A stretch of 62,610 bases of DNA, filler included, from Hausera hauseri (lineage: Eukaryota), in assembly GCA_046269625.1 (NCBI GenBank). It is 10 parts of 10 records of this genome, joined end to end, with 100 filler letters (N's around TTAATTAATTAA, not from the genome) between each part and the next. Parts side by side here need not be neighbours in the genome. Positions count along the whole stretch, not along the records: positions 1 to 6,574 come from JBJURY010085213.1; 9 more parts are not named here. One strand, written 5' to 3'. Positions 1 through 49,182 of this stretch are shown here, piece after piece. Positions within the stretch are counted from its first letter, which is position 1, and every line of letters begins with the position of its first letter. The notes beneath the pieces are model-generated. The model saw nothing but the letters and a program-made list of their open reading frames with translations, had not been told where the DNA came from and made no database searches. Both the position numbers and the translations under genes were made by a program.

Positions 1-1030
1 TTTAATGATTTACATTCGATTTGTTGCGTATCCTTCATAAGTGTTACTTTTTGTCTATTATGTAAGGATCGACAGTTATCTCTATATTGTAGTTTAATCT
101 GTCCTCGACAAAGAATGCTATCTTATCTCGCTGCAGTAAGTATTTGATAGAAATACTTTCCGGTTGCTTTCTGGGCCTTTTACTCGTGACGATTTTAGTA
201 GTCGTACTGGTCGTCGTCGTTGTTTTGACTGGAACTTCCCAGATCAGTCTCCGGATGGTATCCTCTTAGATAGACACTTGATTGGTTCGGTCTAGTTTTA
301 TACAGGTCAAACTGTATTTTGTATCTGTATCCCTGGGGAATTTTACAAAATGGGTTTGGGTTCCATCGATTAATGGCACAATATTCGTTGGTGGAGTTGA
401 TTTCTTCAGTGATATAAATCGAACCGAGATCTGGTAGGATTCTGTTAAACTTGTTCAAGTTTTAATCTGAATACAGGTATTTTCCAAATCCTTGGAGACT
501 TCATCTATATTTTCATCTAATAATCTAATTTGAGGGTCAGTACTTTGAATCACGTCGGATAATTTTATACTATCCTATAAGGCTTTCTATGGCATAGTTA
601 TTTCAATCAGTGGTCGTATGTCTGCTCGAATGACTTCATAGGGGTAATAATAGATAAGTATTGTATATCTGTATGTTCGTCCGAAATTTAGTTCGCAGCA
701 TTTTCTATAAATTCCATATCCAAACTCACAATCTTTTATCCTTTCACTATTTTGATCGGTAAACTTTATACGAAATTTCATATATTCTCTGGTAGCCTTG
801 TCGGTTTGGAACCAGATACAGAGCTTTTTCCAATCTGCGTCATATGCTTTCATTGTTTTTAGATTTTCCACGTCATTTTGTCCTTCCAGGCGTTGTTGTT
901 CCTCTTTGATTTTAGCTTCCCTTTCACTTTTGCTAATTCCATATACATCTGTTAAACTGGATTCGCTATTATCCCACCATTGCGCTTTAGTCTTGGGAAC
1001 ATAAGAGGAGATTAATGATAATGCCAAGAT
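1..1030 (-). pseudogene. Post-integrase surface-protein extension of copy A (signal-like segment, Cys-rich domains, start of the FN3-like domain), disrupted
   Basis: ILALSLISSYVPKTKAQWW follows IN in frame (ORF 587..2086). Then CIWF...DCEF.YG.YRKCC.L.FG.TY, and YCAI...CKIPQGYRYKIQFDLY...NQSSVYL (195..458). These align to the C-terminal extension of ORF 27283..31164. Confidence 0.85.
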
Positions 1031-2200
1031 TGTTTTCCTTTTTTCTTGATTGGAGTTAGATCGCAAATTGTAACGTTTTTCTGGTCTTATTTCTGTTTTA
1101 ATAACTCTCTGTATAGATACTACCTCTTCTTTTCCATTTTTGTTAATGTAAACAGTAGTTGGTGTGGTTCGAATAACTTCGTAAAGCCCTAGTCCAGTAC
1201 GAGTAAGTTTTAATGATGTACCTTTTGTCGCGACTGGATAGTGTACGTAAACCCAGTTCCCTTTTTCTAAATCGTGAAGTTTGGCCTTTTTATCATATTG
1301 CTTCTTAAACTGCTCTTGATACTCGAGAGTAAGCGTCTTAGCTATCTCCCAACACCTCTGTAGTCTCATTGATAAGACTTCCGCGAAGTTCGGCTCTAAA
1401 TCTTCTGGATTTGCGTGATACGGAGTCATTACTAAGTCCGTAGGTAATATTGTTTCGCATCCATACATCATAAAAAATGATGTAAATCCAGTGGCGGGAT
1501 GTATGGTAGTATTGATAGCAAATTGTGTTCCTTCCAAAAATTCATCCCAGTCCTTTTGATCCTTCGCTACTACAATTGGTAAGAACCGTAGAACTGTTGC
1601 ATTCATGAGTTCGACCATTCCGTTACACTGAGGGTGATATGCGGTAGTGGTCAACCGTTCGATCTCAAAGATCTTAGAAATTTTATCAAATAACTTACTT
1701 GTAAAATTTCTTCCTCTATCGGTTAATATTTGATCAGGGGGTCCGTATTTACAGATAACTTTTCTTACTACTGCATCTACTAGAGTTTCTGCCTTTTGGT
1801 CAATTAGTGCTATTAATTCAACGAAGTGTGTTAGTCGATCCACACATGTTAAAATATATTTGTTATTTTTGTGAGTCGTGGATAAGAGTCCTACTATATC
1901 CATAGACATAGCGTACATAGGTCTGTCTGGTACGTCGATCGGTTTCAATTCTGCTACATAGTTTTTTACTTTCTTCTGCTTCGTCGCACAGACTTCACAA
2001 GCGTCTACCCAGTTTTTCACGTCGATATAAACGCTTGGCCAGTAATACTTATTGAATATTCTTTCTAATGTTTTCTTCAATGACATGTCCAGCTAAATGT
2101 GAATCATGTTCATCCATTAATACTTCTGTTCGTAATTCTTTTGGAATGACTACCAGTTTCTGTCCTTTTAGTTCGTAATATAAAATATTGTCTTGATTCG
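1031..2200 (-). pseudogene. Integrase (HHCC zinc finger + DDE core) of copy A
   Basis: ORF 587..2086: YYWP...CEVC, MSMDIVG, ILTDRGRNF, TTAYHPQCNGMVE, ending RYNLRS. There is a frameshift near 2086. Confidence 0.92.
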
Positions 2201-2225
2201 ATGCAAAATATTTATGCCCGTGTCT

Positions 2226-4635
2226 TTATAAGTGTTTCTTTAGCTGACGTCCTTTTGGTATTTCATCTTGCTCGGCAAATTTAACTATTTGTTGGATAAC
2301 TTTATCTTTAGCTTGTTCTGCAGAGATTCTGATTGTCTTATTTAGTGTTAAGGTCCGTTGTCGTTCGACCAATTCTTCGAGTTGGGCTTTCTTCATTGTT
2401 GTAATCGTTTTTGTCTTTGCCTTAAGTCTCGACAAAGTATCTGCGTCATTATGTTTACTTCCGGGTTTATATTGAAATTCGATATTATATCTAGAGATTT
2501 CCTCGATCCACCGATTTAGTCTACATGTCGGGTTGTTGGCCCGTCCTTTTAACGTTGTAATAGACTTATGATCAGTGATTATAATAATTTCCTGCCCATA
2601 AACGTAAAAATTAAAAGGCCTTAAAGCTTGTTTCACCGTTAGCGTCTCTAGTTCAGTAATTGAGCAGTTTTTTGCGGCTTTCTTGAGCGATCGTCCTCCA
2701 CATGCAATTGGATGTTCCAATTTTTCATCTTCTCTTTTCTGAGCCAATTCGTAACCAATTCCTTCTTTGCTCGTATATGTTTTATTATAAATGGTAAATT
2801 AAAATCGGGATATCTTAACACTGGTTCGCTTGTTAAAATTTTCTTTTTTTCGTTGAACGCTTTCTGTTCGATATCGGTCCATTTCCACTTGATTTCTTTT
2901 TCAATAGCCGATATAATGGCGCGTTTATTTTCGAGTTGTCTGGCACATAATTGGCATAATACCCACATAGTCCTAACCAATGTCTTAATTCTTTCTGATT
3001 TTGGGGATCCATACAATCTGATATTTTGTTTAGTAAAGATTTATCTGGCTTCGATCCTCCTTCTCTAACTATATGTCCTAGATAAGATACAGCATTTTGT
3101 GCCCATTTACATTTCTTGGGATTCAGCTTCAATCCGGCCTGTTCTAACCGCATAAGAGTATCTTGGATGTCCTTTAGGTGTTCCTCTTCTGTTCTTGATG
3201 CTATCATTACATCGTCTAAATAGGCAAACGCGTGATCTAGTCCCATTAACATCTTATTCATCATTTTGGTGTAGATAGCTTGGCCGGTTGTTATGCCGAA
3301 CGGCATGACGTTAAATTCATAAACTCCATCATGCGTTTTGAACGCTGTTTTATAACGATCATCTTCTTCAATTTCCACTTGCCAATATCCGTATTGTAAA
3401 TCCACTATGGTAAACCACTTTGCTCGTGATAATCTGTCTAGAGCTTCTTTTACTGATGTTAGTGGGCATGAGTCTTTCATCATAAGCATGTTCAGGGCTC
3501 GGTAATCTATACAGAATCGATGTTTAGTAATACCTTTTTTCTTAACCATGAGTATTGGTTAGTGCCAGGACCGGTAGCTTGGTCGTATTACGTCAGCCTT
3601 CAACATACGTTCTACGTCTTTAGTTATTTCGGGCCTTAATGAATGAGGCGGTGGATACCATTTTGGCATCTTTTCCTCTTCCAAGTCAATTTCGTCATTG
3701 GAGCCACGTTTCTTTTTTAATGGAATCGTTAATCTTAGAGTTTTTGCTCTGCCTATATCTTCCTCGTTTTGGGCAATAATAGACTTATATTTGCATAATA
3801 ATTTGTAAATTTGACAATATGCTTCTGGTGAAAATTTTATCTCAACATGAGGTGGGAACTCAGCATATTTGTATGGTTTTTCTTCAATTGTTATTGCCGA
3901 TACTTTATAAGTATGACCCAATGTAGTACTGGCGTACAACTTTACGGAGGTTGGTGCATTATTAGCTAATCTGACTGGTACTCTTCCTGTCGTTACCCTT
4001 GTCAAAATTTTTTTATGTATGATATTTGGATTAACATCTTCTTGTGGCTCAAAATATACTGGTTGATCGTCCTCTTCTCGGATCTGGGCATAAATTGGCA
4101 CTTCGGTTCTGGGCGGAATATTTTCTTCGACAGGAATCTATACTTCTCCTAGTTTCCTTTCTTTTATTGTCTTAATTCCTTTTACTGGTCCGAGTTCAAG
4201 TAGTTTCCCAGTCTGTAAATTTATCTCAATATTGGGTAATTGTTTCAGTATATCGCAACCTAACACTACATCATCGGTTAGTTGGTCAATTACCGCAAAC
4301 TCGTGTCGAAAAATTTGACCCATTAATTGAACTAACGGACTCCATTTAAACTTTGGTTTGGATTCTTGCTCGAAGGCTCCTATGCTGCTTGGATCTTATG
4401 ACGATTCTGGCTGCAGTTGTTTTCTTAGTGTCGGCAGTATTGATTCTAATTTGATAAACGATTTTTCCGATCCTGTGTCAATTAAGGCATAAACTTCCCA
4501 ATCCTCTATGGTAACTTTTGTGAAGGGTCTTCCTTCCATAACTGTTCCATAACAACTTGACACGTCCTTTGGTCGTTTAATTGAAGAAATCTTATGTCCG
4601 TTATTTCTGATATATTCAGCCAACTGTTTCAGCAC
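2226..4635 (-). pseudogene. Aspartic protease, spacer, reverse transcriptase and RNase H of copy A (premature stops and frameshifts)
   Basis: ALIDTGSEKS (4396..4635); RFCIDYRALN...GYWQV...MPFG...YLDDV (2833..3549); PIACGGRSL...IITDHK...DADTLSR (2226..2747). Confidence 0.93.
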
Positions 4636-5118
4636 TTCATTCGGTTATAAGTCGTTGATTGCTATGCTATCTACATTGTTTTTAATTAATTGTTCTTGTA
4701 CTATTGGCTTTTGGAGCGATTTCGTTCCTTGTATTCCCCAAACTGTCGATCGTGACTCTATATTACGAGCTATTCTTGGTGAGTATAATATTCTATGGTC
4801 ATCTTCCGCTCGTCGTTGATTAGTGATCTGCATTTTCTGTAATACTCCGTGTTGTTTTGTTCCTTCAGAGGTGTCTTCATAGCTAAAGGGTTTACGACAG
4901 AATTCCGATTTGTATGACATCATAGATGTTCTATCGCAATCCTCATATATTGGAGCTGCTGGTGGAATGATGGGCAAGGGTGCCTTAATTACTGAATACG
5001 TTTTGTGTCTGTTTTGTCTGAGGATCGCTTCTCCTCCCTTAGGCTCATCATCGTCTGAGTTATCTTTTCGTGTTATTGATTTCTTAGCTTTGTGTTTCAA
5101 TAGAAACATGGGTCTTGC

Positions 5119-6574
5119 TTATCGTTTATAATTATAGTAGCCGACATGGCGTTCAACGTCATTTTTCCATCGATTTTCTTCGTACGCTTTAAGCATTTTA
5201 CCGAACGGGGTGATAATTGAGGTTAAAATCTTACAGGAAAATCCTGTTTGCGTGAATATTTCGTACCCTTTTATAACTGCTTGGATTACCACTTTTACCA
5301 GTTGTACCAAGAAATAGATTGCTAAAAATCCAGATGCGGCTTGACCAAAAATCAAAAAATCTTCCCCATATTTTGTATAATATTTTTATGGTTACCCTTT
5401 GGTAATGGTTCGCACAAAGCAGGGATTTCCATTTAGCCTGGTAGCGGGTATCATTAACTACCGATGCTATAGCTCGGTTTAATTCGTGTGTTCGCTGTCG
5501 TGGAAAAGCAAGAAAGTGGCGAAAAGCTTCGATTTCTTTAGGCCTGTAAATACCTTTTTTAGATGTATTTTGAAACTTGTCATCAGTAATTCCTTTTTCT
5601 AAATTAGTTCCAGTTAATTTTTTAGGAATGATAGTGACACCTCCATTAAGTAAGCTAACTTAATCCGTTTCGCTACGTCTGAACATCGGTTCACCCAAAC
5701 TTGCCTTACAATCCTTTAGGATTGTTGGTTGCGTTGCGTTGTCTAGGGGCATGGCTAAGCGTGGAGTATTCTGGTAGATTACAGGTAGTTCTTGTATGCA
5801 TCGTTTCTCTTCGACATTGATTGGTACGTCTCTTTTCTCACATTCATATGTCAGTAGAACCTCGCCAGCAACTCGGCCAAAGATTCCTTCTCTAATGGGA
5901 ATAATAGGTGAGGCTTACTCAGGATTCGCATAAATAATGGATAATTTTGTCCTCATAATTTCCGTATCCAATTTGCAATCATTAATTATCATTTTATGGT
6001 ATAGCTCGGCTATCTCGACTTATCCTTTATAATAGAAATAATCGTCTCGGTTTTTCAGATAATCTTCGATTCTAATGTCTTGTGTTTCTAAGTTGTATGT
6101 TTTCGCGTTTGTCTCCGTTTCTGCGACGAAGAACGCTTCGTAGTTAGTGGTGAACATTACTACTTCGTAACGTGAAATCATTTCCTTTTTTATGAATTTC
6201 AAACCATGTTGATCGGAGATTAATATCGTAGTAGTGCTCTGATACGTTTTCACGTGCTCTTGAACTGATATAATATTTGTTTACGTACCTTTTCCCAGTA
6301 GTTTCATTAAATTTCAATTCCTTAATCTTAATAAAATTACAGCCTTTTTCAGCGGGCGGTTCCCATATGACGACCGAACTCCTGAAAGCACAGGTTCCGT
6401 CTTGTATATGACATTTTTGATTCTCGGTATAGAGCTTAGTGACGCTATGGAACATCACTTTCTGGACTCGCATTTCCGATTTGTAAAAATCTACTATTAC
6501 TACGTTTGCTTCTAATCCTTTTCCAGTGTCATATTCCGCTCCACTACAGTGCCCATTATGCATATCTAGCCTTC
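5119..6574 (-). pseudogene. Chuvirus/Jingchuvirales-like class III fusion glycoprotein (N-terminus cut off by the contig end)
   Basis: Manual translation across stops and frameshifts gives GHCSG, C...DGTC....VVIW, NDCKLD, GRVAGEVLLTYEC, RCIQELPV, GIYRPKEIEAFRHFLAFP, then the hydrophobic C-terminus FGQAASGFLAIYFLVQLVKVVIQAVIKGY...GFSCKILTS. This ordered motif series is characteristic of chuviral glycoproteins. Confidence 0.82.
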
Positions 6575-6674
6575 NNNNNNNNNNNNNNNNNNNNNNNNNN
6601 NNNNNNNNNNNNNNNNNNTTAATTAATTAANNNNNNNNNNNNNNNNNNNNNNNNNNNNNNNNNNNNNNNNNNNN
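6575..6674. other. Artificial contig linker (44 N + TTAATTAATTAA + 44 N); also at 10934-11033, 16286-16385, 21342-21441, 31167-31266, 39809-39908, 44131-44230, 51593-51692, 57564-57663
   Basis: The same 100-nt spacer occurs nine times. TTAATTAATTAA places stops in all six frames, and content usually changes abruptly across each spacer. Confidence 0.98.
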
Positions 6675-9470
6675 GGATCCTTTTATCAGAATTTACCTTT
6701 AAGATTTTAGCATATTCCTTGAGTAAAAGCTTAGGTACCGTACTGGAAGTCGTATCTTCGCTAGCTAACTTAATTAAGGTAGGAACTAGATGTCTCAATT
6801 GATTTTCGGTGAGGTCCGCTTCAATTAATTGAATTAAATCTTTTTCGATTTGTACCGGGTCCAGCAGCATTTTTACGTTGAACCTTTGGTCCCGAGAATA
6901 TACCTTCATTTCATCCAATCGTAATGGGGTTTTAGGATTCTCGGCAATCATTGCGTCTAAATATGCCTCCAATTCTGTTTCATTCTCGTTATCTGGCGGT
7001 TGATAGTCCTTTGACGGTGCATCAATTGGTTTATCCACACTTGTGGCCCATGTGGTTTTTCTGAGTTCTTGTAGTTTCTGTTGGATTTGGACCATTTTCA
7101 TCATTCAGAAACATCTCCCACTAGCGGATGTTCGGTGGAGCAGTTTTAACAACGAACGTAATTCTTCGGGTCAAATTAATCCCTTTTCTTGATATTTCGT
7201 TAGTTCAGACGTGACATCTCTTTGCCATCTTTGAACAAATTGTGACTTGTCAGCCTTTTCTGTTTCTGTAAGGGCTTATTTGTTTTTAAAAACTTCGAGT
7301 TCTCTAGCTAGTTCGTCTAATCTCATCGCTCTCTGTTTCATCTAAATGCAAGTTTCTTCGACTTGCTGTATTTGTTGCAACAATTGTCTTTACTTCTCGT
7401 CACCAATTTCTGCCATTTCTGCCATCAATAGCGCTAATTCGTACATATCCTTATTACTTTTTGAATACAGATCTATCGCATCTAATAATTTTTTACAAAC
7501 TTGATCTCTTCGAAGCTAAGGTGGTGGTCATTCTTTATTTTAATAAGTTCGGTACGATGTCTCTGATCCGTTCCGTTTATCCATTCTTGTAGCTGGTGTA
7601 AGAGCTTCACCGTTTCTTGAACGATCGACCGATGTTTTGGGCAAAAGTTTAAGGTTTTAAGATCTCGAATCAAGATTTCTTCGATAGGTTTGGCTGTCAA
7701 CCACCGTATTCCTTTCAGGAGGACATCTCGTAATCGCGGATGGAAATCGCAAGTCGCATTTCGCTTCCGCATGAAGTTTGTTTTTTCGATCATTTTATAT
7801 ATATCGTCTAGTATTATCATTTCTTGTTTCTTTTCAATAAAGTCCAATTGACGCGGTGCCTCGAATTGGGTTCGGATGTCAATTTCTGCTTTAATCGTAT
7901 CTAGATTTCGGGCGTCTGCTTCCAATTGCTTCTTTACTGTAGGTTCCCTCTCCGGAAATTTATTCTTCCGTCTGTTTATTAAGTCGCTTAACCTTGGTAT
8001 TACCTTGGACCATTTGTTCAACTGATTGGCAATTTCTTGCTTCGCTAAGATTGCTTTGTTTAACATTTTGCAAGCATCCTCTAGTTCATCATGTGGACCT
8101 TTAATAAAATCGATGACCCAACAGGCATAGTCAAACTCATCCTTGTATTTATCGAACTCGAGGATACAAGCCAGTTGGCTGCATAATCCTATTCCTTAGA
8201 CCATATATCTGCAACGGTTTTTCGGCTTTAATCCTAATACTATTTTCCAAACTTGTGTATTTCTTTGATGCCGTCGAAGCGACCTTTATCATTTCCATCA
8301 AGGGTGGAATATCTACACAACCTATGCCCAATATCTCTAGTTCATTTGCATCTCGTTCTTTTACCGGCTTTCCCTTATGTTGTTCGACTATTGCAAATCC
8401 AATTTCATTCATGACACGCTCTAAATTACGTACGGCTCTTTTAAATTTTGGGTTCGTTTCTAATGTAATTAACAGCAACTAAGCCTGGTTGATTCTAGCT
8501 ACAATGTCTTGAGTAGTTTTATCCTACATCTCCGGAAATTTCGTCTTGCTTTAAATCCACCGTTCTAATTCGGGTTTCCATTGAACTAGTGTTTCTTTTG
8601 CCACTTCTTCAGTCTGATCTAAGTCTATAGCTTCCTTTAGTTTCCCTTCACTATATAGCTTCATTTTTTTATATAATCTCTCTACAAACTGTTGTTCCTT
8701 GACAGAAATATCCACTTGCTCACTTATTGCTTTAAGTTTCTCCAGATTCTGTTGCATTACCTCTGAGTTGAGACAATTCATCCTCATTCTTCTTAATTCT
8801 TCAGCATTTTTCCATGAGCGTCTGATTATCCACTTCTTAGGATCAAGTTTTTCCTCTTGTTCTATTTCCTGTTCGCTAGTAGGTAAGGGACATACATCAT
8901 TTATCTCATTTACAGGTTTCGTCAGCTCATCGTATTCGCTATGCATAGCAAGTTAAATTCCGGACCGTTCGAGGTGCACTCTATGTCGCTTTCTAATGAG
9001 ATTTAGGTTTCTCTCCTTGTGCTCGGCTTCTCCTTAAACATTGGGGATCTTGAACGATCTTTAGGTTTTCACCTCAATGATGGACTACGGCCTTTATTCT
9101 TGGTAATTTTAAGTATACGCAGTTGTAGAAACTCTTTTCTTTTGTCGGCCTCGGCCTCCTTGGTTACGTTTTTATAGCATACTCGGGTTCTACATCTAAA
9201 TCTACTTTATCTGGAGTCTCAGGGTTTCCTGTTTCGATTGACCCTTTGTCTACCGTAGGAACGTTCTTTTTCCGTGCCATATCACTCAGCCTTGGTGGGG
9301 CAATGGAACGTTCATATTTCGTTTCCGGTTCGCGCATACCGTGATAAACTTTTAATTATCGTAACTTATGCTCGTACTCATTCCTAGCCACTAAGACTTT
9401 AGAGTCTTTAGTATCAGGTTGGGCCTTTAAAAAACGTTGTAAATCTTGTATCTCAATGATCATACCCGTG
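6675..9470 (-). pseudogene. Long decayed alpha-helical/coiled-coil coding region downstream of gag, product unknown
   Basis: Successive minus-strand E/K/L/Q-rich ORF fragments (8551..8946, 8149..8478, 7482..8066, 6675..7104), several in one frame separated by isolated stops. No DTG/DSG or YxDD motif seen. Confidence 0.6.
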
Positions 9471-9472
9471 TC

Positions 9473-10676
9473 TCAACGGACGCCGTAAATGGCTTCTAAG
9501 TTTTCGTTTTTAATAACATTAGTTTTACTAGGTTCGACAAACGAAGCACTTGGCGGGTTTGGAAAGGATCTTGCTATATGTCCTTCTTGTCCGCATGTAT
9601 AACAAACTAAGTTGCCGTTTCTACCGATTCTTTGTCGTCCATCTTCCTTTAACGGAGATTTCGATCTACTCGGATTTCTATTGTAGCCTTGCTGCGACGG
9701 AGTCTGCGTAGGGTCTTCATATTGGCGATTATTGTAACTTCGGCTGTCACTCTGTAGGTTAAAACTTTTGGGGCCATCTAGGCGTTTATCCGTATGATAG
9801 CTTGATTTACTAGAAAAAATATTTCCATTATTATCAAAATTTTGATTACTGTATCGCTCGGTTCTGCGATCATAATTACCGTTCTTGTTCCGATCCCCAT
9901 AATTCTTGTTAAATCGTCTATCATTTCTATTCTTCCGATTTCTATCGCCTCGATCACATTGATCACTATTTCTATCATTTCTGTCATTGTTTCTGGCATA
10001 TCTATCCAATGCAATTTCTAAGTCCTGGGCCAATTGCAATGTCCTATCAAAATTCTCCGGGCGTGCTAAAATCAATTGCTTTACTATGTCTTTAGACCAA
10101 ATACCATTTATTAATTGCGTCATCATAATGACACATAAATCTAGGGGACTTCTTTTTTCTGCGGCTGCGCGTTCTGCTTCATTTTTAGCCTTTGCTATGT
10201 TCGCTATCCTTAAGGTGCTTAAGTAACTGTTTGCCAATTTCTTTAAAGCAAAAGAAAATTGGGTTATCGATTCACCCTTTTGTTGAACTCTTCTGAAAAG
10301 CCATGAGATTTTGTTGCGGAGTTACAGTCGGCATTAATTTTCGATTCAGGACTCCTATCAGTGAGGACCAAGTTTTCTTCTCATCATCCGTGAGTTCTCT
10401 ATAGGCATCAGCGGCCAAATTCTTTAAATATAACGACAAACGTTTAATCATCACGTTAGCTGCTAGTCCAGCACCTTCTGCATGCAACTTATATGTCTTT
10501 AAGAATTCATTAAGTCCGTCCGGGTCTCCGTCGTACGCCGGAAGATTTTGCGAATCAAATGTAAAAATATCCAGTTTTTGAGCTATTGCTTGATTTTCAA
10601 CCATATTTTCAACGTTTGTTACATTTTGCTTAACTACCTTACGAGTTCTAGTTTTCTTATCCGGCTTTAAATTCAA
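9473..10676 (-). pseudogene. gag: Ty3/gypsy Gag (capsid + R/N/D-rich linker + degenerate zinc knuckle), frameshifted
   Basis: LPAYDGDPDGLNEFL...LSLYLKNLAADAYREL...TWSSL; QLINGI...ARPENFDRTLQLAQDLE; CYTCGQEGHIARSF (CCHC with the last Cys replaced by Phe). Confidence 0.88.
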
Positions 10677-11454
10677 AGGGCTGTTCGATAGCGTCTAGAT
10701 CAATAGGTTCAGTGTTAATTAAGTTTGATTCAGATAAAGTGCGTCTACTCAACGTCTCACCTTGTCTATATACTTTATTGCTTGTTTCGCGAAAGTTAAT
10801 ATTCTCCTTACCGTTTAGAATGAGATTTAAGTTATCTTCTGACTTATGTCTATCAATATTCGTTCTTGACTCAATAATATGTCGTTATAATACTGAGGGT
10901 TTTCTTTTAGTCCCAAATTTAATTTCACAAATTNNNNNNNNNNNNNNNNNNNNNNNNNNNNNNNNNNNNNNNNNNNNTTAATTAATTAANNNNNNNNNNN
11001 NNNNNNNNNNNNNNNNNNNNNNNNNNNNNNNNNATGTTACATCTTAAGAAAATATTACACAATTTAATTATAAGTAATGTGTAAAGGATCACTTATCTCC
11101 AGAAATCTGGTTGAGTGCAAAAAGGCTATAAAAGCTGACAGAGAGAATTGACCCGGTAGCTTTGGATTAATACAGAAACCTGAAACGACTGACTTTGATG
11201 CTTTGAGCAGAAGCATCAAAGTCAAGTTTATTTATTTGTGTTTGGTTTTATTTGCATAATATGTCATAAACAAAAGGTATATTTTAATTTCTTCTGTTTG
11301 GTTATTGTACATTTAAGTGACATAACATGTCGATTCAGAGTCAAGTATATGAAAATTCGCTCACACCCTCCAAAGGTACCCTTTCATTCATCTCCGTTAA
11401 TTCTCAAACAGTTACGTTAAGTGTTAATTGATCTGCATGGGTACTCATTCTCTC

Positions 11455-13041: not shown

Positions 13042-13116
13042 ATGTGCAAAATGTAACAAACTCACCGAAATAAAATCATACATGACAACAATATGACGAA
13101 TTAATATATTTCAAAT

Positions 13117-24837: not shown

Positions 24838-27180
24838 CTAAACATAGCCAGTTATTCTCTCGTCTAAATCGGAAATGGATTCGTGGCGTTCTCGAACTGT
24901 TACGGAATTTGTTTCCAAACTATAACTGTAGTGGGGTTTTATTCTAACGACTCGCGTATAGCTTCCGTTCGAGTAATACTTAAGCTCTGTAGCTTCAGCC
25001 CGACATACTGGACACGTGGTCTTCCCATTGTCGAGGGTCCATTTTTCGAGGCAGTCTCTGCAATATTTATGTCGGCAATTTTTGTTATCGAGGATTACAT
25101 AACCTTGTTGTAAGTTAGCTTCGCAGACGGGACATTCGTTTTCTTCCTTGCCCCAATCGTCCCGATCCAAGTCTACTTGGATGGTTAGCTCAATCGGCTC
25201 AAATACAAGGCCGTCTTTATCTTGATATAGATACCCATGGATTATCTTTTGTTTCGGGTTAACGGAGCTTTTTCTGGGATCACAATCAACTTGTATTAAT
25301 GTCCAGTCGGCCATGAGGTCCTTATCTAAGTCGGGAATGATTCCTTCCATTCTATATTTCTTGTATTGTTTCTTCAGTAGAACTCGAATTTGTCTATCTA
25401 CTGGCACTATTATCTTTCCTGTCCTTTTTGAGCGAAAAATTGAGGTTAGGTAGGTTCCGAGTTTGCTGTTTTCCCATACATAAGTATTTTCAAATACTTC
25501 TCGGTTTGGTGCGATTTTGATGAAAAACATGGCCTCCTTTATTATCTTTTTACTGTAGTACTCTGTGGTGATTAGCATCTTTGGAAATTCCTTTGTAGTT
25601 CTATAGTGTGCGTCCTCTTTATTTCTTTTCGATATCAAGGTATTGATCTCAGTTATTAGGGGACTCCTAATTCCCCTTTTCAATGGCTGTATATCTTGGG
25701 AAGTGCCTGATTGATTTTTCTGAATCTCCGTTCCTAATTCTCCGTCTATTTTCCGTCTTTTAAACAAGTAATTGTATATCGATAGGGTTTTCCTGCTTTT
25801 AGGTTTTTCTTCGACTTTCGTACCTTCGGTCGAGGTTCCGGGCCTCATTGCTTCCATGTCCTCCCTGGTTTTTATCACATCTCCTTTTGGTATTTTCTCT
25901 TTTCGAGCGTTCCGCGTTTTTGTATTCTCTTTGATGGTCCGTTCTGGTACTGTGATGTGGAGACTATGTTGGTCCGTTAACTGGACAGATCGAATTGGGG
26001 AATAAAGCTTTATGCCCTTTCTATGTTTTCCGTCTATTCGCTCTGGAACTATCGAGTTGCGTAAGTTTTCTATGGGATTCTTTGGGGTCCACTCGTGTTC
26101 CCACTTTAATTTGACATATATCTCCCGCAAGTGTTTGGACCGTTGGCTGGCCGTCATAAGTCTGGGTATCTTGCTTTGATCATCACTCATGGCCTCAATA
26201 GCTAATTTGAGAATTGCTTCTGGTGCTGTAGGTGGATTTCTCCCTTGTATTGTTTTTTTCATCCGTTCTTGAACTATTGGGTGATGGGCTATTTCCCTAA
26301 ATCCGGCAATATTTGCATCGGATATTTCTAATAGCTCCATGTTGTACTGTGCGTAATATCCAGTTACCATACATCCGTATAGGCAATGTTCTAATTCTGA
26401 TCGTACCTGATAGCTGTCTTTCCCATTTATTAATTGGTCTTTCCTTAAACCTGTTACTTCTGCATATGTTTCTTGAACATGCTTCCGGGGGTTTATAATA
26501 GTTGAATATATTTCTTCTCCATTTCTCTCTCTGACTGATACATCTATAGGAATTCCGTATCCATCGTCTCCTCTACCGCAATTTATCGCTATGATTCTTA
26601 TATTCCGTCCATCTTGGACTAATCTGTATGCTTGTCGGTGTCTATCCTTTTCTTCCTCGGTTGGTGTCTGTATGAACTGTAACGCTGGCAAACCTAAGTT
26701 GCAGCTTTCTTTACTAGTTACTTCGAACATCAACTTGACGGGTAGTACCGCTACTCGAAATTCTATCTCATACTTAACGGATTCTAAACCTTGTCCGCTG
26801 ATCTTAAACGTGCTGAACCGATACTGGCGCCCTTCATCGTTATTCCATGGCTGGTTCTTTATTCTATAATAAATCTCTCCATCCGCGAGGTGTATAAAGA
26901 GATTCTCCACTCGGTTTACTTTATTATGAATTAACTCCTTCAGATCGTACGATTTGGCTTGATGGTTGTCTCTCATAGCATATAACAGGACGGTACGGTT
27001 GTCCTCTGTAGTGCCTTTTAAATCGTTGGGTATTTCAGTCACTTTTTGATATCCCAGGTATGCTTTTGTCTGCATTGCGTCGTTGATTCTTCTGTATAAT
27101 CCTTTGGATTTCGGAATGAGGACTGTTCCGTATTCTTGTAGAAAGGCGTCGATCCTAGGTCGGCTGTTCGTACTTACCAT
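24838..27180 (-). CDS. 780-aa accessory protein: unknown N-terminal domain, inactive REX4/ISG20-like DEDDh exonuclease fold (~26110-26605), basic linker, C3HC4 RING finger (~25000-25134)
   Basis: IIAINCG..IDVSVR..NGEEIYSTIINP...VTGLRKDQL..GKDSYQVRSELEHCLYGCMVTGY..YNMELL..LKLAIEAM..KIPRLMTASQRSKHLREIY follows REX4-like spacing but lacks the acidic/His catalytic residues. The RING is CPVC-x15-CRHKYCRDC-x12-CPVC. Confidence 0.85.
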   Translation of the reverse strand: MVSTNSRPRIDAFLQEYGTVLIPKSKGLYRRINDAMQTKAYLGYQKVTEIPNDLKGTTEDNRTVLLYAMRDNHQAKSYDLKELIHNKVNRVENLFIHLADGEIYYRIKNQPWNNDEGRQYRFSTFKISGQGLESVKYEIEFRVAVLPVKLMFEVTSKESCNLGLPALQFIQTPTEEEKDRHRQAYRLVQDGRNIRIIAINCGRGDDGYGIPIDVSVRERNGEEIYSTIINPRKHVQETYAEVTGLRKDQLINGKDSYQVRSELEHCLYGCMVTGYYAQYNMELLEISDANIAGFREIAHHPIVQERMKKTIQGRNPPTAPEAILKLAIEAMSDDQSKIPRLMTASQRSKHLREIYVKLKWEHEWTPKNPIENLRNSIVPERIDGKHRKGIKLYSPIRSVQLTDQHSLHITVPERTIKENTKTRNARKEKIPKGDVIKTREDMEAMRPGTSTEGTKVEEKPKSRKTLSIYNYLFKRRKIDGELGTEIQKNQSGTSQDIQPLKRGIRSPLITEINTLISKRNKEDAHYRTTKEFPKMLITTEYYSKKIIKEAMFFIKIAPNREVFENTYVWENSKLGTYLTSIFRSKRTGKIIVPVDRQIRVLLKKQYKKYRMEGIIPDLDKDLMADWTLIQVDCDPRKSSVNPKQKIIHGYLYQDKDGLVFEPIELTIQVDLDRDDWGKEENECPVCEANLQQGYVILDNKNCRHKYCRDCLEKWTLDNGKTTCPVCRAEATELKYYSNGSYTRVVRIKPHYSYSLETNSVTVRERHESISDLDERITGYV

Positions 27181-27181
27181 T

Positions 27182-27210
27182 CTAAAAACAAATACAAAAT
27201 AAGGGTCAAT
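27182..27210 (-). promoter_or_regulatory. Putative splice acceptor for the accessory ORF
   Basis: TTGAC-CCTTATTTTGTATTTGTTTTTAG|A ATG GTA AGT. The homologous site in copy C is ATTAAC-CT(n)ATTTTAG|C AGA GTA AGT ATG (49161-49195), in the same phase. Confidence 0.7.
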
Positions 27211-27282
27211 CCTGAAACAAAGTATTGTTCTAAATTTGAACCAATTCTTTGTTTGATGGTGGAATAACCCAATCTGTAGTTG

Positions 27283-30200
27283 TCAGGTTATTCCATCATT
27301 GATTTCATCCTGTGGTACCATCACCCTTAATTCCCTTTCATTAATTTTATGACGCTTAATACAACAATTTTTGGCAATTAATCGAAAAATCGCAATGATC
27401 ATTACGAGAGCGAACACTGATATACCAATAAGCGATATTAGTGACATCGTTGTCCATTTATTTGAATTCTCTATTTTGACGGTAGTTATAATTTTGTCAT
27501 TTGCTTTGTCCTCATTTGATAGTTGCTTCATAGAAATTTCGTTTAAAGTTCGTGCTGTAAATACTACACTTTGTTTACTTTCTGCTTTCATTTGTATTAT
27601 ATAATTTGTCCTAGGTTTTAATCCGATACATTTAATTTGACGACTGCCACTTGGCAGTATGACTTTCTGGTCATTATACAATGTTCGACAGCTTATTCTT
27701 ACTTCGTATTTAAGTTTTTCTTCCGCAACGAATGTTATCTCGTTTTGTTGTGCCAGATATTTTACCGGGATCGTTTCTAATTTTTCTGATGGTGATCCGG
27801 TTGTTCGGTAGAGTCTAATAGGAACTGGGGTAATTTTATTCCTTTTTATAATCGTAGTTTTGTTCATATTTGGTTTCGGCATAATCCCTTTGAATAAATA
27901 ATTCAATAGGTAGCTTCCTAAGAAAATACTTGACTGATTGATTCTTACTTCATACAAGTCTAGTCGAATTTTATATCCATGTGCTTGAGGCGTTTTGCAG
28001 CATCTGTCGGGCCTTTCTGAGTCAATCTGACAATATTGTTGATGTAAAATCGGTTTGTCTTCCTTGAAAAAGTTAACTGTGATTACTCGTCCTTTAACCA
28101 GCCGTCTTTTAGTGTTGATTTGAACACATCGATCTTTTTGGTTTTCTTCTACGTTTTCTATATTTTCCTCTAACATTCGTTTGAGTGGGTCCATAGACTG
28201 GAGTAAGTCCTCCGAATCGGTACTTCGGTAATCTTCATAGTTTTGAGGTAGCACTAAATATGAATTCAAGATTATTTCCGCTTTTACTTTATCACAGTTT
28301 GGTGGATATAATTGGTATCGCACAGTATAAGAATGTCCATATTTCACGTTACAACAAGTCGTATCATCTTCTGACTCGAATCTACATTCGCTTTCTTCAT
28401 GGTTCGATATATCACGGAACAGTATCCGAGTTTGTCCTTCACGTAAATCTGGTAATCTGAATCCGACACATGGGGTTTCTGGTGAAAAGTAATCAATTGT
28501 TATAGCTCGTAAGAATTTTTCATCTCTTGGTTCTATTTTATTTTCGGGCAATTTTTCTGGAGGTTTTAACTCATTTAACCCAATTTTTCTAATCCCATAT
28601 ACATCACTTAATGAACTTTCATCGATCCACCATTGTGCTTGAGTCTTGGGCGTTAATGCAGCAATTAATGATAAGGCTACTATGATTTGAGCATACGATA
28701 CTGGTCTGGTGATAATTGATGAGGTCTTATTTTCACGTGGTCTCAGATTGTACTGTTTGATCGGTTTTATGTCTGTTTTAACTACTCTTTGCACTGATAC
28801 AACTTCTTCCTTTCCATTTTTATTAACATATACTGTGGTCGGCGTTGTTCGGACTACTTCGTATGGTCCTCTTCCGGTACGTGTTAATTTCAAGGATGTA
28901 CCTTTTTTGGCTACCGGATAATGTATGTAAACCCAATTTCCTTTCTCCAGATCGTGAGGCTTGATTTTTTTATCATATTGTTTCTTAAATTGTTCTTGAT
29001 ATTCGAGTGATAGTGTTTTCGCGACTTCCCAACATTTCTGCAATCTTGTTTGTAGAACTTCTGCAAAGTTTTGTTCTAAATCCTCTAAGTTCTTTTCATA
29101 TGGCGTCATGCCTAGGTCTGTGGGTAAGATTGCTTCTCGTCCGTACATCATGAAAAATGGTGTAAATCCTGTTGCTGGATGTGGGGTAGTGTTAATTGCG
29201 AACTGAGTTCCTTCTAGGAATTCATCCCAATCCTTTTGGTCCTTTGCCACTACCGTTGATAATATTCGAATAACTGTTGCATTCATTCGCTCTACCATTC
29301 CGTTGCATTGAGGGTGATATGCAGTTGTCGTTAAACGTTCGATTTCAAATATTTTAGTGATCTTCTCAAATAATTCACTTGTAAAGTTTCTTCCTCTGTC
29401 TGTTAGTATCTGTTCTGGTGGTCCATATCTGCAAATAATTTTCCTTACTACTGCATCGGCTAAGGTTTCTGCTTTCTGATCTATCAGCGCTACTAGTTCA
29501 ACGAAATGCGTTAATCGGTCTACGCATGTTAGGATATATCTGTTATTTCTGTGTGTTTTAGGCAAGGGTCCCACTATGTCCATTGACATAGCTTGCATTG
29601 GCCTATCTGGCACGTTTATGGGTTTTAATTCCGCTACATAGCCCTTTGATTTCTTTTGTTTAGTAGCACAAACTTCGCAGGCTCCTACCCAATTCTTCAC
29701 ATCGATATAGATGCTTGGCCAATAATATTTATTCAGTATCCTTTCTAACGTCTTTTTCCAGGACATATGTCCGGCTAAATATGAATCGTGTTCCGCCATA
29801 AGCACTTCAGGTCGTAATTCCTTGGGAATAACTATCAATCTCCGTCCTTTTCGTTCGTAGTATAAGACGTTATCTTGATTTGACACATGATATTTATGTC
29901 CGTGTTTTTGTAGGTGCTTTTTCAATTGTCGTCCTTTCGGTAGCTTATTGTCTTGTACGAACTCAATAATTTGTTGAATGACCGTATCCTTAGTTTGTTC
30001 GGCTGTGATTCTAACTGTTTTGTCTAATATTAGAGTCTTCTGTCGTTCAATCAGTTGCTCGAGTTGTGGTTTCTTAAATACTGTAATCGCACTGGTTTTT
30101 GTTTTAAGCCTTGACAGTGCATCGGCATCAACGTGTTTGCTACCAGGTTTATACTGAAATTCGATATTATATCTCGAGATTTCTTCAATCCATCGATTTA

Positions 30201-31166
30201 ATCTACACGTTGGATTATTAGCTCGTCCCTTTATCGTCGTAACTGCTTTATGATCCGTTACTATGATTATTTTTTGTCCATAAACGTAGACATTAAAATG
30301 TCGTAGTGCTTCTTTCACAGCTAATGTTTCTAATTCGGTGACCGAATAGTTCTTTTCTGCTTTCTTTAGTGAACGTCCTCCGTATGCTATTGGATGTTCT
30401 AATTCCTCGTCTTCACGTTTCTGAGCCAGTTCATATCCTATGCCTTCCTTACTTGCGTCCGTTTTGATGATAAATGGTAGATTGAAATCTGGATATCTTA
30501 GGACTGGTTCACTAGTTAAAATCTTTTTCATTTCGTCGAATGCCTTTTGTTCTACTTCTGTCCATTTCCACTTAATTCCTTTCTTGAGTAATCGGTACAG
30601 CGGAGCATTAATTTTTGAGTTGTCCGGCACGTAAGTGGCGTAATAACCGCATAGACCTAACCAATGTCTCAACTCTTTCTGATTTTGCGGTTCCATACAG
30701 TCCGATATTTTATTTAGCAATGATTTATCAGGTTTCGATCCTCCTTCTCCAACTATGTGTCCAAGATACGATACGGCATTTTGTGCCCATTTACATTTCT
30801 TTGGATTTAATTTTAGTCCGGCTTGTTCTAGTCGCATAAGTGTATCTTCGACATCCTTTAAATGTTCTTCTTCTGTTTTTGATGCTACCATCACGTCATC
30901 TAAGTATGCGAATGCATGGTCAAGTCCCATGAGCATCTTATTCATCATTCTGGTAAAAATAGCTGGTCCTGTGGTGATACCAAAAGGCATAACATTAAAT
31001 TCATATACACCATCGTGTGTTTTAAACGCCGTTTTATATCGATCTTCTTCTTCGATTTCCACTTGCCAATATCCCGATTGTAAGTCGAGAGTGGTAAACC
31101 ATTTTGCTCCTGATAATCTGTCGAGGGCTTCCTTTACTGATGGTAAAGGGAACGAGTCCTTCATCA
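27283..31166 (-). CDS. pol: Pol polyprotein (RT, RNase H, IN) with an in-frame ~470-aa type I membrane protein extension (27283-28695); 5' truncated
   Basis: YLDD, TDAS/ELE/TDHK, H..GH..CEVC, DDE, GPY, YNLRP. Then signal-like YAQIIVALSLIAALTPKTQA, two C..C-x8-9-CC..Y repeats, FN3-like GLKPRTNYIIQMKA, TM WTTMSLISLIGISVFALVMIIAIF and tail KNCC. Confidence 0.95.
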
Positions 31167-42800: not shown

Positions 42801-42819
42801 GTAAATAAGGAACGTAAAC

Positions 42820-44230: not shown

Positions 44231-47200
44231 GATAGCACCAAGCTATTACGGTACAGTAATCGAAGGCAGGCCCTTCGCAAAGATTCAATTGGAAGATTGG
44301 GAGGTTTATGCATTAATATATGCAGGATTTGAAATATTACTGATAAAATATGATTCGATACCACAATTCTTAGGAAAACAATTATATCCACCTCCTACGA
44401 CAGACCCAAGAAGCATTGGAGCTTTTGGACAATCATCGAAGAGTAAATTCCGTTGGAAACCAGAAATTCACATAATGGGACAATCTGTTCACCATGAATT
44501 CTCAGTAATGGAGCAATTAACGGATGATGTAGTGTTAGGGTGTGACATATTGAGACAACTACTTAATATGGCAATCGATTTCAATGCAGGCAAGTTGATA
44601 AAACTTGGCTCAATAAAAGGAGTTAAAACCGCTAAGGACAGAAAATTTGGAGAAGTGTGGATTCCAGTGGATGAAACCATACCACCCAGAACAGAAATCC
44701 TAATATATACTTAGATACGTCAGGATGACGATCAGCCAATATATTTTGAACCAAAGGAATCGCTCGATCCAAACCTCGTGCTCAGCAATGTTTTGACAAG
44801 AGTATCAACGGGCCGTGTGCCAATCAAGATAGCCAATAACGAACTAACCCCGATCACGCTGTACGTTAATACCACTTTGGGACACACGTGTAGAGTATCA
44901 TCAATCACTATTGAGGAGAAACCATATAAAGGTGTCGAATTTCCTCAACACGTGGAGACTAAGTTTTCACCAGAATCATATTGTCAATTTTACGAATTAC
45001 TCTGTCGCTATAGATCGATTATCGCGAAGGATGAAGAAAATATTGGCCGAGCCAAAACCTTAAGGCTTACGATTCCGCTTAAGAAAAAGCCAGGATCTAA
45101 CGACGAAATAGTCTTAGAGAATCAAAAGATACCGAAGTGGTACCATTCTCCACACTCGTTAAGGCCAGAGATAACCAGAGGTTTAACGAATGTTAAAGGC
45201 AGACATAATAAGGTCACGTTATAGATTATGGTATTTACCTATACTCATGGTTATAAAGAAAGGTATCAGTAAACACCGATTTTTCATCGGCTATCGAGCA
45301 TTAAACACACTTATGATGAAGAATTTCTTCCAGTTACCATCGGTAAAGGAAGCTTTGGATAAACTTTCTGGAGCTAAATGGTTTACCACGCTCGATTCTC
45401 AATCTGGATATTGGCAAGTAGAAATAGAGGAGGAAGATCGTTACAAAACGGCATTTAAGACACACGATGGTATATACGAATTTAATGTTATGCCATTTGG
45501 AATAACTACCGGATTAACCATCTTTACCCGTATGATGAACAAGATGCTAATAGGACTGGATCACGCGTTCGCTTACTTGAACGACGTCATGATTGCGTCG
45601 AAAACGGAAGAAGATCATTCAAAAGACATCGAAGGTACACTCATGAGATTGGAGCAAGCTGGATTAAAACTGAATCCCAAGAAATGCAAATGGGTTCAAA
45701 ATGCTGTATCGTACCTTGGACATATAGTTGAAGAAGGAGGGTCGAAGCCGGACAAATCACTATTAAGTAAGATATCAGATTGCATGGAACCTCAGAATCA
45801 GAAAGAATTAAGACATTGGTTGGGTTTATGTGGATATTATGCCACTTACGTACCGGATAACGCGAAGATAAAGGCACTTTATATCGTTTACTTAAAAAAG
45901 GGATCAAAGGGAAATGGACCGATGTCAGACAAAAAGCTTTTGATGAAATGAAGAAAATTCTAACTAGTGAACCCGTTCTAAGATATCCTGACTTCAACCT
46001 ACCGTTCATAATCAAAAAGGATGCCAGTAATGAAGGTATCGTATATGAATTAGATCCGAATCGAAAAGACGAGGAGCTAGAATACCCGATTGCATACGGA
46101 GGACGCTCCATAAAAAAGCGGAGAAGAAGAATTCTGTTACGGAGTTTGAAACATTAGCCGTAAAAGACGCACTGCGACATTTTAACGTGTACGTATATGG
46201 ACAGAGGATCGTAATCGTTACTGATCATGAGGCAGTTACGTTTCTAAAGGGTCGAGCGAATAATCCCACTTGTAGACTGAACAGATGGATTGAGGAAATC
46301 TCACGTTACAATATTGAATTTCAATACAAACCCGGAAATAAACATGTCGATGCTGATGCATTATCAAGACTTAAGACCAAAACGAGTGCCATTACGATAA
46401 TGAGGAAAACCCACCTCGAAGATTTAGTAGAAAGACAACGGACTCTTGTTCTGGATAAAGCATTACGGATCTCTATCGAACAAAAGAAGGACGGAGTCAT
46501 AAAACAAATTATTGAGTTAGTAGACACCGGTAAAGTGCCGAAAGGCCACCAGTTGAGAAAACATTTACGGAGATATGGTAATAAATATTGCTTAACAGGA
46601 GATTTGAATTGTGGAAATGTGTTATACTATGAACGAAAAGGACGGAAATTAGTTGTCATACCAAAATGGTTACGTACAGAAGTGCTAATGGCTGCACATG
46701 ATTCATACTTAGCTTCACATATGTCATAGGAAAAGACATCGGAAAGGGTATTAAATAAGTATTATTGACCGAGCATTTACATTAACGTGAGAAATTGGGT
46801 AAATGCTTGTGAAGTGCGTGCAACAAAGCAGAAAAAATAAAAAACTACGTCACTGAGCTTAAACCTATCGACGTGCCCGATCGATCAATGCAAGCAATGT
46901 CTATGGATATTGTTGGACCATTACCTACGATTCACAAGAATAACAAATATACCTTGACCTGTGTAGACCAATTGACTCATTTCGTTGAGCTTATAGCGTT
47001 ATTAGACCAAAAGGCCGAGATTTTGGCAGAAGCAGTAGTCCGGAAAATCATTTGCAGATATGGGCCACCCAAGCAAATCTTGACAGACCGAGGAAGAAAC
47101 TTTACGAGCGAATTATTCGACAAAATTACCAAAATTTTTGAGATTGAACGATTAACCACCACAGCTTACCATCCCCAATGTAATGAAATGGTTGAACGAA

Positions 47201-47750
47201 TGAATGCAACCGTTATACGAATCTTATCGATTGTAGTCGCAAAGGACCCGAAGGACAGGGATGAGTTCTTAGAAGGTATACAGTTTGCCATTAATACTAG
47301 TCCACATTCTGCGACAGTATTCACTGCATTTTTTATGATGTATGGAAGAGAATCGGTGCTTTCTACAGGTTTAGAACGGATCCCATACACAACAAGAACA
47401 GAAGATTTGAAACAAAATTTTGTCGAGGTATTGCAACTGCGATTACACAAGTGTTGGGAAATAGCCAAAGAATTATCTAAAGAATACCGGGAACAATTCA
47501 AGAAGCAGTATGATAAGAAGACTAAACCACACGATCTAGAACCCGGAAATTGGATTTATGTCCACTATTCAGTAGCAAAGAAAGGCACGTCTCTTAAGCT
47601 TACCAGGACAGGCAGAGGACCGTATGAAGTTATTAAAGCTACGTCGACCACAGTCTATATGAATAAAAAAGGCAAGGAAGAGGTCATATCAATTCAGCTA
47701 GTAGTTAAAACGGAAATAAGGCCAAACAAACACTACAATTTGCGTTCGAC
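44231..47750 (+). pseudogene. pol: Pol (PR, spacer, RT, RNase H, IN) of copy C
   Basis: EDWEVYALIYAG (dead PR site), GYWQV..MPFG..YLND, VTDH, MDIVGP/TDRG, GPY, HYNLRS. Confidence 0.93.
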
Positions 47751-47789
47751 CAAAACAAATAAAGGGACAAAAACGTCATCAATAGTAAC

Positions 47790-49088
47790 TAGACCAATGT
47801 ATAATGTACAAATAGTCCTGGCCATATCGTTAATCTCTTCGTATATACCCACAGTAAAATCGATCGCTCAAACCGAAAAACAAAAGGATATCCGAAACTT
47901 ACAGTCACTTAGAGTATGCGATATGGATTGGAGAAAACCATGTCATGGTTTGAAGCAAGCGAGCCTATTCGGAGTCGCGTGAAATTTCAATTAATATTTG
48001 TAACCAGGGACATGATGAAAACGTGCGATTTTCCGTACGGAGTTCATAGGAAATGTTGCAGTTTGGATTTTGGACAAACCTACAAATACGGATTTCAAAT
48101 GTTTTATTCTTATCAGTTTGGGGCTCGAGCCTACATAAGTAGGGAACTGTCAATAAGAATGCCCCAACAATAGGACGCAAATCAAGCTAAGACAGACAAA
48201 ATAAATCGAAGCACAGATCCAGTTAATAGGCTCTTAGATTACAACATTATTGGGATTCACAAGGACTTGAAGAACCAGTGTATTCGAATTGAGACCAAAA
48301 TCTGACTGCCAGGAGACAAAGAAATTTCTGTCCAGTTTACACCGCTGAACACTTCTATTCCTAAACCAGAGTATTGTTCATTGGCCAAACGACGTCATAC
48401 TGTGTGCTGTGTACTGATAATAGGACAAGAGTATCGGTTGCAATTCGATTTGTACGATACATATCCAGGAGAACCAAGTATCTATTTAAGAGGATACCGT
48501 CCAAAGGTCGAAATATGGAGGCTTCCATTCCCGACCACTACGAGAAAACCGTCTACTGCTCCGAGTACAACTCGCATTACCATAATCGTCACTTTGGTCA
48601 AAATGCCGGGAAACATACCGGTTAAAATTTTATCAAAAAGTGATAAAATTCTATTTTTCGCTAAAGAGATGTCGAATCAAGATGTCAAAATTAAATGTCA
48701 TACCCTGCACACTAACCAAGTTGTGATCCTGAGAAAGAATAGCCAGGAAACTGAATGCAGGTCATTACGGCTGCAACATGACTATATAATTAGAATTACT
48801 GCAAAGGGTAAGAACCCTAAAACTTTTACAGTACGAAATCTTGGCAATAAATTTGAAGTAATGCCGTATAAAGATATCAGTACTGAAAATGTGTTTACCA
48901 CGGAAAGTTTTATCGAGCCGAATAATTTACCGATAATAGCTATATTTAGTTTGTCAATTTTAGTTCTTATCATATTAACAGCGATGAATTTTCTAGTTTT
49001 CAAAAATTGTAATAAGCGCTGTAGAAATCGGAAGTGAGGTAAATGGATAAAAGGGCACCAAGACAGACTTTATGATAGCATAAACTAA
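47790..49088 (+). pseudogene. Surface-protein extension of copy C
   Basis: IVLAISLISSYIP, TCDFPYGVHRKCCSLDFGQTY, VCCVL..GQEYRLQFDLY, T/P-rich stalk, CRSLRLQHDYIIRITA, TM IIAIFSLSILVLIILTAMNFLVF. Confidence 0.85.
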
Positions 49089-49182
49089 CAACTACAGATC
49101 GGGTTATCCTATCGTCGGACAGAGAAAGATGTTTGTTTCCAAACGGTGATTTGTCTTAGGATTAACCTTTTTTTTATTTTAG

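Follow-up and report, generated by a model that had tools for sequence, protein, structure and literature searches.

In 2019, the giant gypsy-like planarian elements Burro/GYPSM1 were reported to carry env between gag and pol in the same frame, which the section on env presents as the first such case; this env matches fusion glycoproteins from mononegaviruses of arthropods and of fish (Arkhipova and Yushenova 2019, PMC6431247). GAG-ENV-POL errantiviruses with an HSV/gB-type Env (HSV, for herpes simplex virus) have since been described in Nematoda, Bryozoa, and Platyhelminthes, in a text that also reports chuvirus-like glycoproteins adjoining gypsy pol and cites the NERVs of Sacco et al. 2022 for a "flipped order of ENV and POL" (Chary and Hayashi, eLife 2026, PMC13524379). 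Here we analyze 62,610 nucleotides of the genome of Hausera hauseri (GCA_046269625.1), the whole of which is referred to as the window and which holds copies A, B, and C of a Ty3/gypsy retroelement. A sequence-only reading of copy A had placed a chuvirus-like glycoprotein upstream of the protease in the Pol reading frame and had regarded this as a departure from the usual env-after-pol order; given the planarian case (described in PMC6431247), the layout is not unprecedented. We conclude, with a probability of roughly 0.75, that this gypsy family keeps a chuvirus-type glycoprotein in frame before the protease, most likely as part of one Gag-Env-Pol polyprotein with four predicted crossings of the endoplasmic reticulum (ER) membrane.

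Results

Copy A is a decayed, dead copy of an abundant Ty3/gypsy retroelement. It has the Ty3/gypsy order of protease (PR), reverse transcriptase (RT), RNase H (RH), and integrase (IN) with gypsy-type domains, as judged from Pfam and from the alignments of relatives. No matching terminal repeats were seen within the window, which copy A leaves at one side and in which all copies end at N gaps. The parts of copy A on either side of the Env-PR junction are as follows.

5122..6574, minus strand: Env, split over three frames: a fusion glycoprotein of chuvirus/mononegavirus type (HSV-gB-type class; PF24664)
5272..5328, minus strand: predicted Env membrane anchor, TM1 (hydropathy scan)
5119..5121, minus strand: decay stop (sibling contigs of run X1)
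4648..5118, minus strand: open linker from Env tail to protease (157 stop-free codons; sibling contig cover)
4645..4647, minus strand: stop without a counterpart in most siblings, adjoining the variable stretch 4604-4625 (run X1)
4141..4644, minus strand: aspartyl protease, with D-T-G near 4477-4479 and a decay stop at 4396 (RVP, E 2.7e-5)
3562..4137, minus strand: PR-RT spacer (open frame; aligns to copy C and relatives)
2229..3558, minus strand: RT and RH, with breaks near 2900 and 2785 (RVT_1, E 7.8e-34; RT_RNaseH, E 2.1e-21)
977..2092, minus strand: IN, continuing in frame as SP2, a hydrophobic signal-like segment at ~977-1030 (rve, E 1.9e-15; Integrase_H2C2, E 3.4e-9)
1..976, minus strand: second predicted ectodomain behind the integrase, decayed and leaving the window (homology to copies B and C)

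The end of the glycoprotein, the linker, PR, the spacer, and RT share a single minus-strand frame, as had been proposed from the sequence: over the 841 codons from 5355 to 2833, stops occur solely at 5119, 4645, 4396, 4138, 3559, and 2833, and the other two minus frames of this span contain 76 and 63 stops. From the Env tail to PR (4396-5355), there are 3 stops versus a mean of 22.3 in shuffled sequences, with 0 of 2000 shuffles that low; the linker with its stop (4645-5118) has 1 stop versus a mean of 10.0, a value reached by 2 of 2000 shuffles. Pol exits the frame near 2900, and more frame breaks follow near 2785 and 2085. The anchor-to-protease distance of 265 residues compares with 71-642 among the relatives described below, and neither the linker (4648-5118) nor the spacer (3562-4137) had a Pfam match.

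Opposite the stops at 4396, 4138, and 3559, copy C has sense codons, so that these stops are, as previously proposed, decay. Copies B and C cannot test those at 5119 and 4645, as neither reaches the Env-PR junction. Sibling copies were taken from the contigs of public run X1 that matched positions 1-6574 at 80% likeness. A total of 19,723 contigs matched, covering 30 of 30 bins. Env and linker had summed depths of ~1,800-14,500, comparable in magnitude to the 9,600-11,300 of PR, and a single contig spans 4949-5319, from the Env tail into the linker, without a gap. For stretch 4560-5200, we used the complete list of 29 places at a threshold of 75%. At 5119, the first codon position differs from the stop in 1662.6 of 1762.9 summed depth (~94%; 38 contigs), and codon 4645 is sense in 324.3 of 377.7 (~86%; 15 contigs). 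Both stops are therefore decay of copy A. The sequence-only reading had left room for these two to be genuine and had called for codons 5119-5121 and 4645-4647 to be read in other copies, where they proved mostly sense. Likewise, of 14,340 depth at stop 3559, 14,327 lacks the stop, and 16,737 of 22,752 lacks the frame break near 5355.

A fusion-profile search of the translation, as the sequence-only reading had suggested, returned PF24664 (Monjiviricetes_fusion) above cut-off, at 5357-6142 (E 7.9e-19, profile 287-544; read with X at stops) and at 5122-5355 (E 3.2e-10, profile 546-602), and by sequence Env is of the gB (class III), chuvirus-related type. The glycoprotein is split over its three frames by breaks near 6240-6285 and near 5355. 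Positions 6144-6572 gave no PF24664 match; within them, 6285-6572 aligns to Env of intact relative P0047 (30% identity, E 1e-10), with position 6560 lying ~145 residues into that protein, and the N-terminal ~150 residues of Env, along with the expected internal signal, fall inside the N gap at 6575-6674. Copy A Env shares 21-33% identity and invariant cysteines with the Env of 13 intact relatives, of which P0061 also matches Glycoprotein_B, below cut-off (E 1.4e-4). TM1 (5272-5328; mean hydropathy, 2.26) is the sole 19-residue window above threshold in frame 5355-2836. A structure model of 5357-6142 has a low pLDDT of 43.8, and a Foldseek search with this weak model gave no match at E 0.001; class III fusogens made up 22 of the 43 matches listed and the top 4, with GP64 and gB leading, all at E > 0.7.

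Relatives were collected with RT-RH-IN of copy B among proteins of 2264-5000 amino acids (aa), which gave 91 matches, 16 of them with PF24664; these 16 and 8 others of the 91 were rescanned. Each of the 16 has the glycoprotein on the N-terminal side of RT within a single intact Env-PR-RT-RH-IN open reading frame (ORF) of 2327-4057 aa and has a protease motif between the Env anchor and RT. The proposed position of the glycoprotein upstream of the protease is thus borne out by Pfam in copy A (PF24664, RVP, and RVT_1) and by these 16 proteins, and the region upstream of PR is found in other copies of the family, with siblings covering Env, linker, and PR and the relatives keeping the order. Eight of 10 relatives looked up have several cluster members, many of equal length (21 members for P0049), and we counted the repeated assembly of several relatives at the same length in favor of a continuous polyprotein. 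The seven best full-length blastp matches to copy B are, bar one, Env-bearing proteins. Seven of the 16 (P0042, P0043, P0047, P0048, P0049, P0051, and P0052) have three aspartyl-protease motifs, situated just behind TM1, at the usual place, and behind the integrase just ahead of SP2. Homologs of the Env tail-linker-PR region were found for 0 of 2894 candidates among proteins of 710-2025 aa, a range below the length of full polyproteins, and sequence searches of the PDB gave solely Pol-domain matches among the best 60 listed.

Upstream of Env, the window holds three further features.

6575..6674, no strand: assembly gap over the Env N-terminus (N runs 6575-6618 and 6631-6674)
6675..9400, minus strand: long decayed helix-rich region between Gag and Env (similar-length pre-Env stretch in relatives)
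9473..10700, minus strand: Gag, frameshifted, with a capsid-like N-terminal part at ~10245-10682 and a CCHC knuckle at ~9560-9640 (zf-CCHC, E 2.1e-5)

Several 100-base gaps of the window, including 6575-6674, consist of 44 N, a 12-base AT palindrome, and 44 N and are scaffold fillers. The window Gag (10682-9560) matches the N-termini of 10 of the 16 Env-Pol relatives (tblastn, E 1e-13 to 0.007), 6 of the 16 have a Gag or knuckle match near the N-terminus (one below cut-off), and Env begins near residue 1100-1250 in P0037, P0040, P0043, and P0051, which have a pre-Env stretch like that of copy A. Region 6675-9400 had no Pfam match above cut-off, and 7485-8195 had no usable match in the Atlas. 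Because the stops are mostly sense in siblings, 16 relatives are intact, and Gag matches 10 of their N-termini, a single Gag-Env-Pol polyprotein is the most likely product of the ancestral element. The fusion of glycoprotein and Pol that the sequence-only reading had proposed is upheld by the sibling codons and the intact relatives, but the polyprotein most likely starts with Gag, which matches the N-termini of 10 relatives, and not with the glycoprotein.

Behind the integrase lies a second membrane cassette, which is best preserved as an open frame in copy B. The RT of this copy is 91% identical to that of copy A.

27283..31164, minus strand: copy B, with RT-RH-IN-SP2-ectodomain-TM2 open over 1293 codons (SP2 near 28640-28716, TM2 at 27385-27441)
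24838..27282, minus strand: accessory ORF directly after the stop of the copy B polyprotein, 814 codons, with a C-terminal RING (zf-RING_2, E 1e-8)
44231..51592, plus strand: copy C, with PR-RT-RH-IN, post-integrase cassette, and RING ORF; decayed, N gaps at its ends

Copy B begins inside RT, and copy C begins at an N gap at the PR N-terminus. The copy B integrase continues without a change of frame into the cassette, which comprises a signal-like segment, an ectodomain of 390 residues that contains cysteines, a strongly hydrophobic anchor, and a short tail; decayed homologs of the cassette are present in copies A and C, with the 11-residue hydropathy peak of SP2 in copy A (2.06) being weaker than that of copy B. 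Paired hydrophobic segments follow the integrase in 11 of the 16 relatives, P0044 has the first one only, and four have none. Three of these four end no more than 8 residues from a Y-N-L-R motif, which in copies A and B is situated ~15 residues ahead of the signal-like segment; because these three proteins end near the motif, the cassette looks as if it had been added onto a normal integrase end.

The second ectodomain matched no Pfam family. Fibronectin type III clusters of the Atlas were found for it at 0.84, which is below the reliable range and a lead only, and a single-sequence model (pLDDT 38.9) was not used. A profile of the final module in copies B and C collected, over 4 rounds, 37 distinct module stretches from these two copies and from Env-clade relatives, where they lie in the tails; in pairwise comparison within a set of 18 sequences, support between modules is weak (E 1e-4 to 1e-2; the copy A row of that set, read mostly in the wrong frame, was discounted). 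The post-integrase ectodomain has been swapped between lineages, with an immunoglobulin domain in P0044 (residues 2481-2554), a short cysteine-rich domain in P0036 and P0039, and repeated beta modules in others. Among proteins of 711-2263 aa, which are shorter than full polyproteins, 0 of 6507 candidates were homologs of this region. A decayed homolog of the RING accessory ORF follows copy C at about 49160-51500 on the plus strand, and outside the RING finger the accessory ORF matched no Pfam family.

The remainder of the window contains other repeats. Positions 16334-19689 and 52100-57100, both on the minus strand, are two other, unrelated retroelement copies, with DUF7041 at 18844-19689 and RT and IN matches near 52-54 kb. 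A Tc5/pogo-type DDE transposase lies at 21451-22488 (minus strand), and very long CT-rich and short-period simple-repeat tracts at 31257-39860 and 60400-62610 give rise to spurious long ORFs. On the plus strand at 42800-44130 are decayed frames, without a Pfam match above cut-off, which we take to resemble a Polinton-type DNA polymerase region; they have no relation to copy C, which starts only beyond the gap.

Discussion

The data presented here place a chuvirus-type fusion glycoprotein in frame ahead of Pol, and the hydrophobic segments suggest how such a chain might be threaded through the membrane. At the threshold used, a hydrophobic segment precedes Env in 14 of the 16 relatives and one lies at the Env end in 15 of 16, with weaker ones in the rest, and the charge bias fits the predicted topology at SP1, the internal signal ahead of Env (8 of 11), at SP2 (12 of 14), and at TM2 (10 of 12). 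By standard ER biology, from which the ER steps of the model are inferred, Gag and the spacer would be made in the cytosol, and SP1 would open translocation, so that Env enters the ER lumen and folds there. Host signal peptidase would cut at SP1, separating Gag from Env, and TM1 would stop transfer and return the chain to the cytosol, where PR-RT-RH-IN would hang from the Env anchor. SP2 would then reopen translocation, releasing a second type I membrane protein held by TM2. Pol, which would face the cytosol, may therefore be a loop tethered at both ends and brought to the budding site by Env and not through a Gag-Pol fusion, and its own protease could free it once Env oligomerization brings protease domains together. 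The extra proteases behind TM1 and ahead of SP2 in 7 of the 16 relatives fit a Pol loop that is cut from two anchors. The sequence-only reading had pictured Pol as the cytoplasmic tail of an anchored fusogen; the Env anchor stands, but instead of a free tail, the second cassette after the integrase probably makes Pol a loop with two fixed ends.

Several observations weigh against this interpretation. The relatives are only 32-44% identical in Pol, and in a quick tree built on 41 rows, after removal of 52 that had <560 aligned residues or were surplus Cordylochernes gene models, copy B is a long branch whose placement beside the Env clade, comprising 14 of the 16, is weak (SH-aLRT of 86). Run X1 may itself be the source of the window, and its depth sums are not copy numbers. 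The stretch 4604-4625 is variable and has a depth of only 59, with 22 contigs having loose ends at 4602, and frame continuity from linker to PR is seen in copy A and the relatives, not for most siblings. Gag is joined to Env solely across an N gap of unknown length. The topology is derived from a hydropathy scan with hand-assigned segments, and the charge bias at TM1 is uninformative (9 ties among 14). Finally, the post-integrase pair of segments is absent from 5 of the 16 relatives and present (near 2411 and 3039) in P0057, a gypsy polyprotein that lacks PF24664.

The main rival explanation is that the ORF is continuous in the DNA and yet working Pol is made without Env, either from an env-skipping spliced Gag-Pol or Pol message or by recoding at 4604-4625 that sets the Env:Pol ratio. 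As a rule, retroelements require much more Gag and Env than Pol, the recoding stretch is variable and poorly covered in siblings, and an ATG lies at 5107-5109, just behind the Env tail. However, most siblings lack this ATG, as 1071 of 1138 depth has another base at 5107, and the 16 relatives keep the entire ORF open over 2300-4100 codons and in 7 cases have extra proteases beside both anchors; we therefore regard such a route as unlikely, though it deserves more weight than the two alternatives that follow.

It is far less probable that env and pol are separate ORFs, with a genuine stop at 5119 (or 4645) and a common frame that arose by chance or serves readthrough. The position of 5119, ~50 codons behind the anchor, would give a plausible tail length, and a shared frame has a chance of 1 in 3 per junction, but the predominance of sense codons at both places in sibling depth largely refutes this idea, the three other stops in the frame are decay, and the relatives are fused. 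Slighter still is the chance that an ordinary gypsy pol has come to lie next to a glycoprotein of other origin: a chuvirus-derived insertion in its own right, the end of a different element, or the product of a chimeric assembly. In its favor, this is a fragmented assembly whose sequence breaks off in a gap immediately upstream, and the part of the mosquito study drawn on here reports solo chuvirus glycoproteins in mosquito genomes (PMC7642597); against this, sibling contigs densely cover Env, linker, and PR and bridge the Env tail to the linker, and distant intact relatives repeat the gene order along with a Gag that matches.

The preferred reading, one polyprotein with Env before the protease, can be extended more tentatively. 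It is conceivable, albeit closer to a one-in-three proposition than to an even one, that this gypsy clade uses a flavivirus-style four-pass polyprotein with two surface proteins, a class III fusogen before Pol and, behind the integrase, a fibronectin-like protein that evolves fast and serves for attachment or as a decoy, in which signal peptidase severs Gag and the enzymes are packaged as Env cargo, a route that would be one not known for retroviruses. If signal peptidase separates Gag from Env-Pol, the enzymes must be packaged through the envelope protein, and the amounts of Gag, Env, and Pol could not be tuned by frameshifting. The conserved second membrane protein is a candidate receptor-binding partner of the gB-type fusogen. 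Since intact natural relatives exist in public assemblies, topology and cleavage are testable on fragments.

Among elements already described, Anakin, a BEL/Pao element of mosquitoes, likewise has a chuvirus-like glycoprotein in a long terminal repeat retroelement, but the portion of that study drawn on here gives it a Pao backbone (Dezordi et al. 2020, PMC7642597), whereas Pol here is of the Ty3/gypsy type (Integrase_H2C2 and RT_RNaseH). No Pfam match to the Pao family was found in the window copies, which accordingly show no Pao-type Gag-Pol backbone, and relative P0044 finds its best PDB match in Ty3 Gag-Pol. The nematode NERVs are said to be metaviruses with a continuous gag-env-pro-pol ORF in which an env captured from an RNA virus stands before pro-pol; they are reportedly restricted to nematodes and carry other accessory ORFs. 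Troyka was rejected as a match, as none of these elements encodes an envelope according to the part of the description consulted (PMC12440569).

The likeness to Burro lies in architecture: the relevant sections describe one long ORF with Gag, an in-frame env, and PR-RT-RH-IN (PMC6431247), of which the Gag-Env continuity is hidden by the gap here. The accessory domains listed there include RING (PMC6431247), which in the window sits in a separate downstream ORF, and relative P0037 has ubiquitin-like and ankyrin inserts, as does Burro in the same account. In the window copies, no match to BCL2, BIR, MATH, Ubl, or ankyrin was found (for decayed 6676-9000, one frame and four ORFs were scanned), and no named Burro protein was among the 91 long-relative matches. 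Burro was compared by description only, and the section on its env mentions no membrane cassette after the integrase (PMC6431247). More broadly, we found no published account of a membrane cassette behind the integrase in open-access text, with figures and subscription papers being outside the scope of the search, and as far as this literature goes, the cassette is an extra feature beyond the published gag-env-pol layout.

In the text describing the errantiviruses, figures aside, the genes are not treated as one polyprotein, and neither fibronectin nor RING is mentioned (PMC13524379). Shared with copy A, as far as that text describes them, are the Ty3/gypsy Pol, the gag-env-pol order, a gB-type, chuvirus-related Env, multiple copies, and an ectodomain held between a signal and an anchor or two membrane segments (PMC13524379). 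Taken together, the fusion of env ahead of pol is rare but published, and copy A adds a member to this group along with firm evidence for one ORF.

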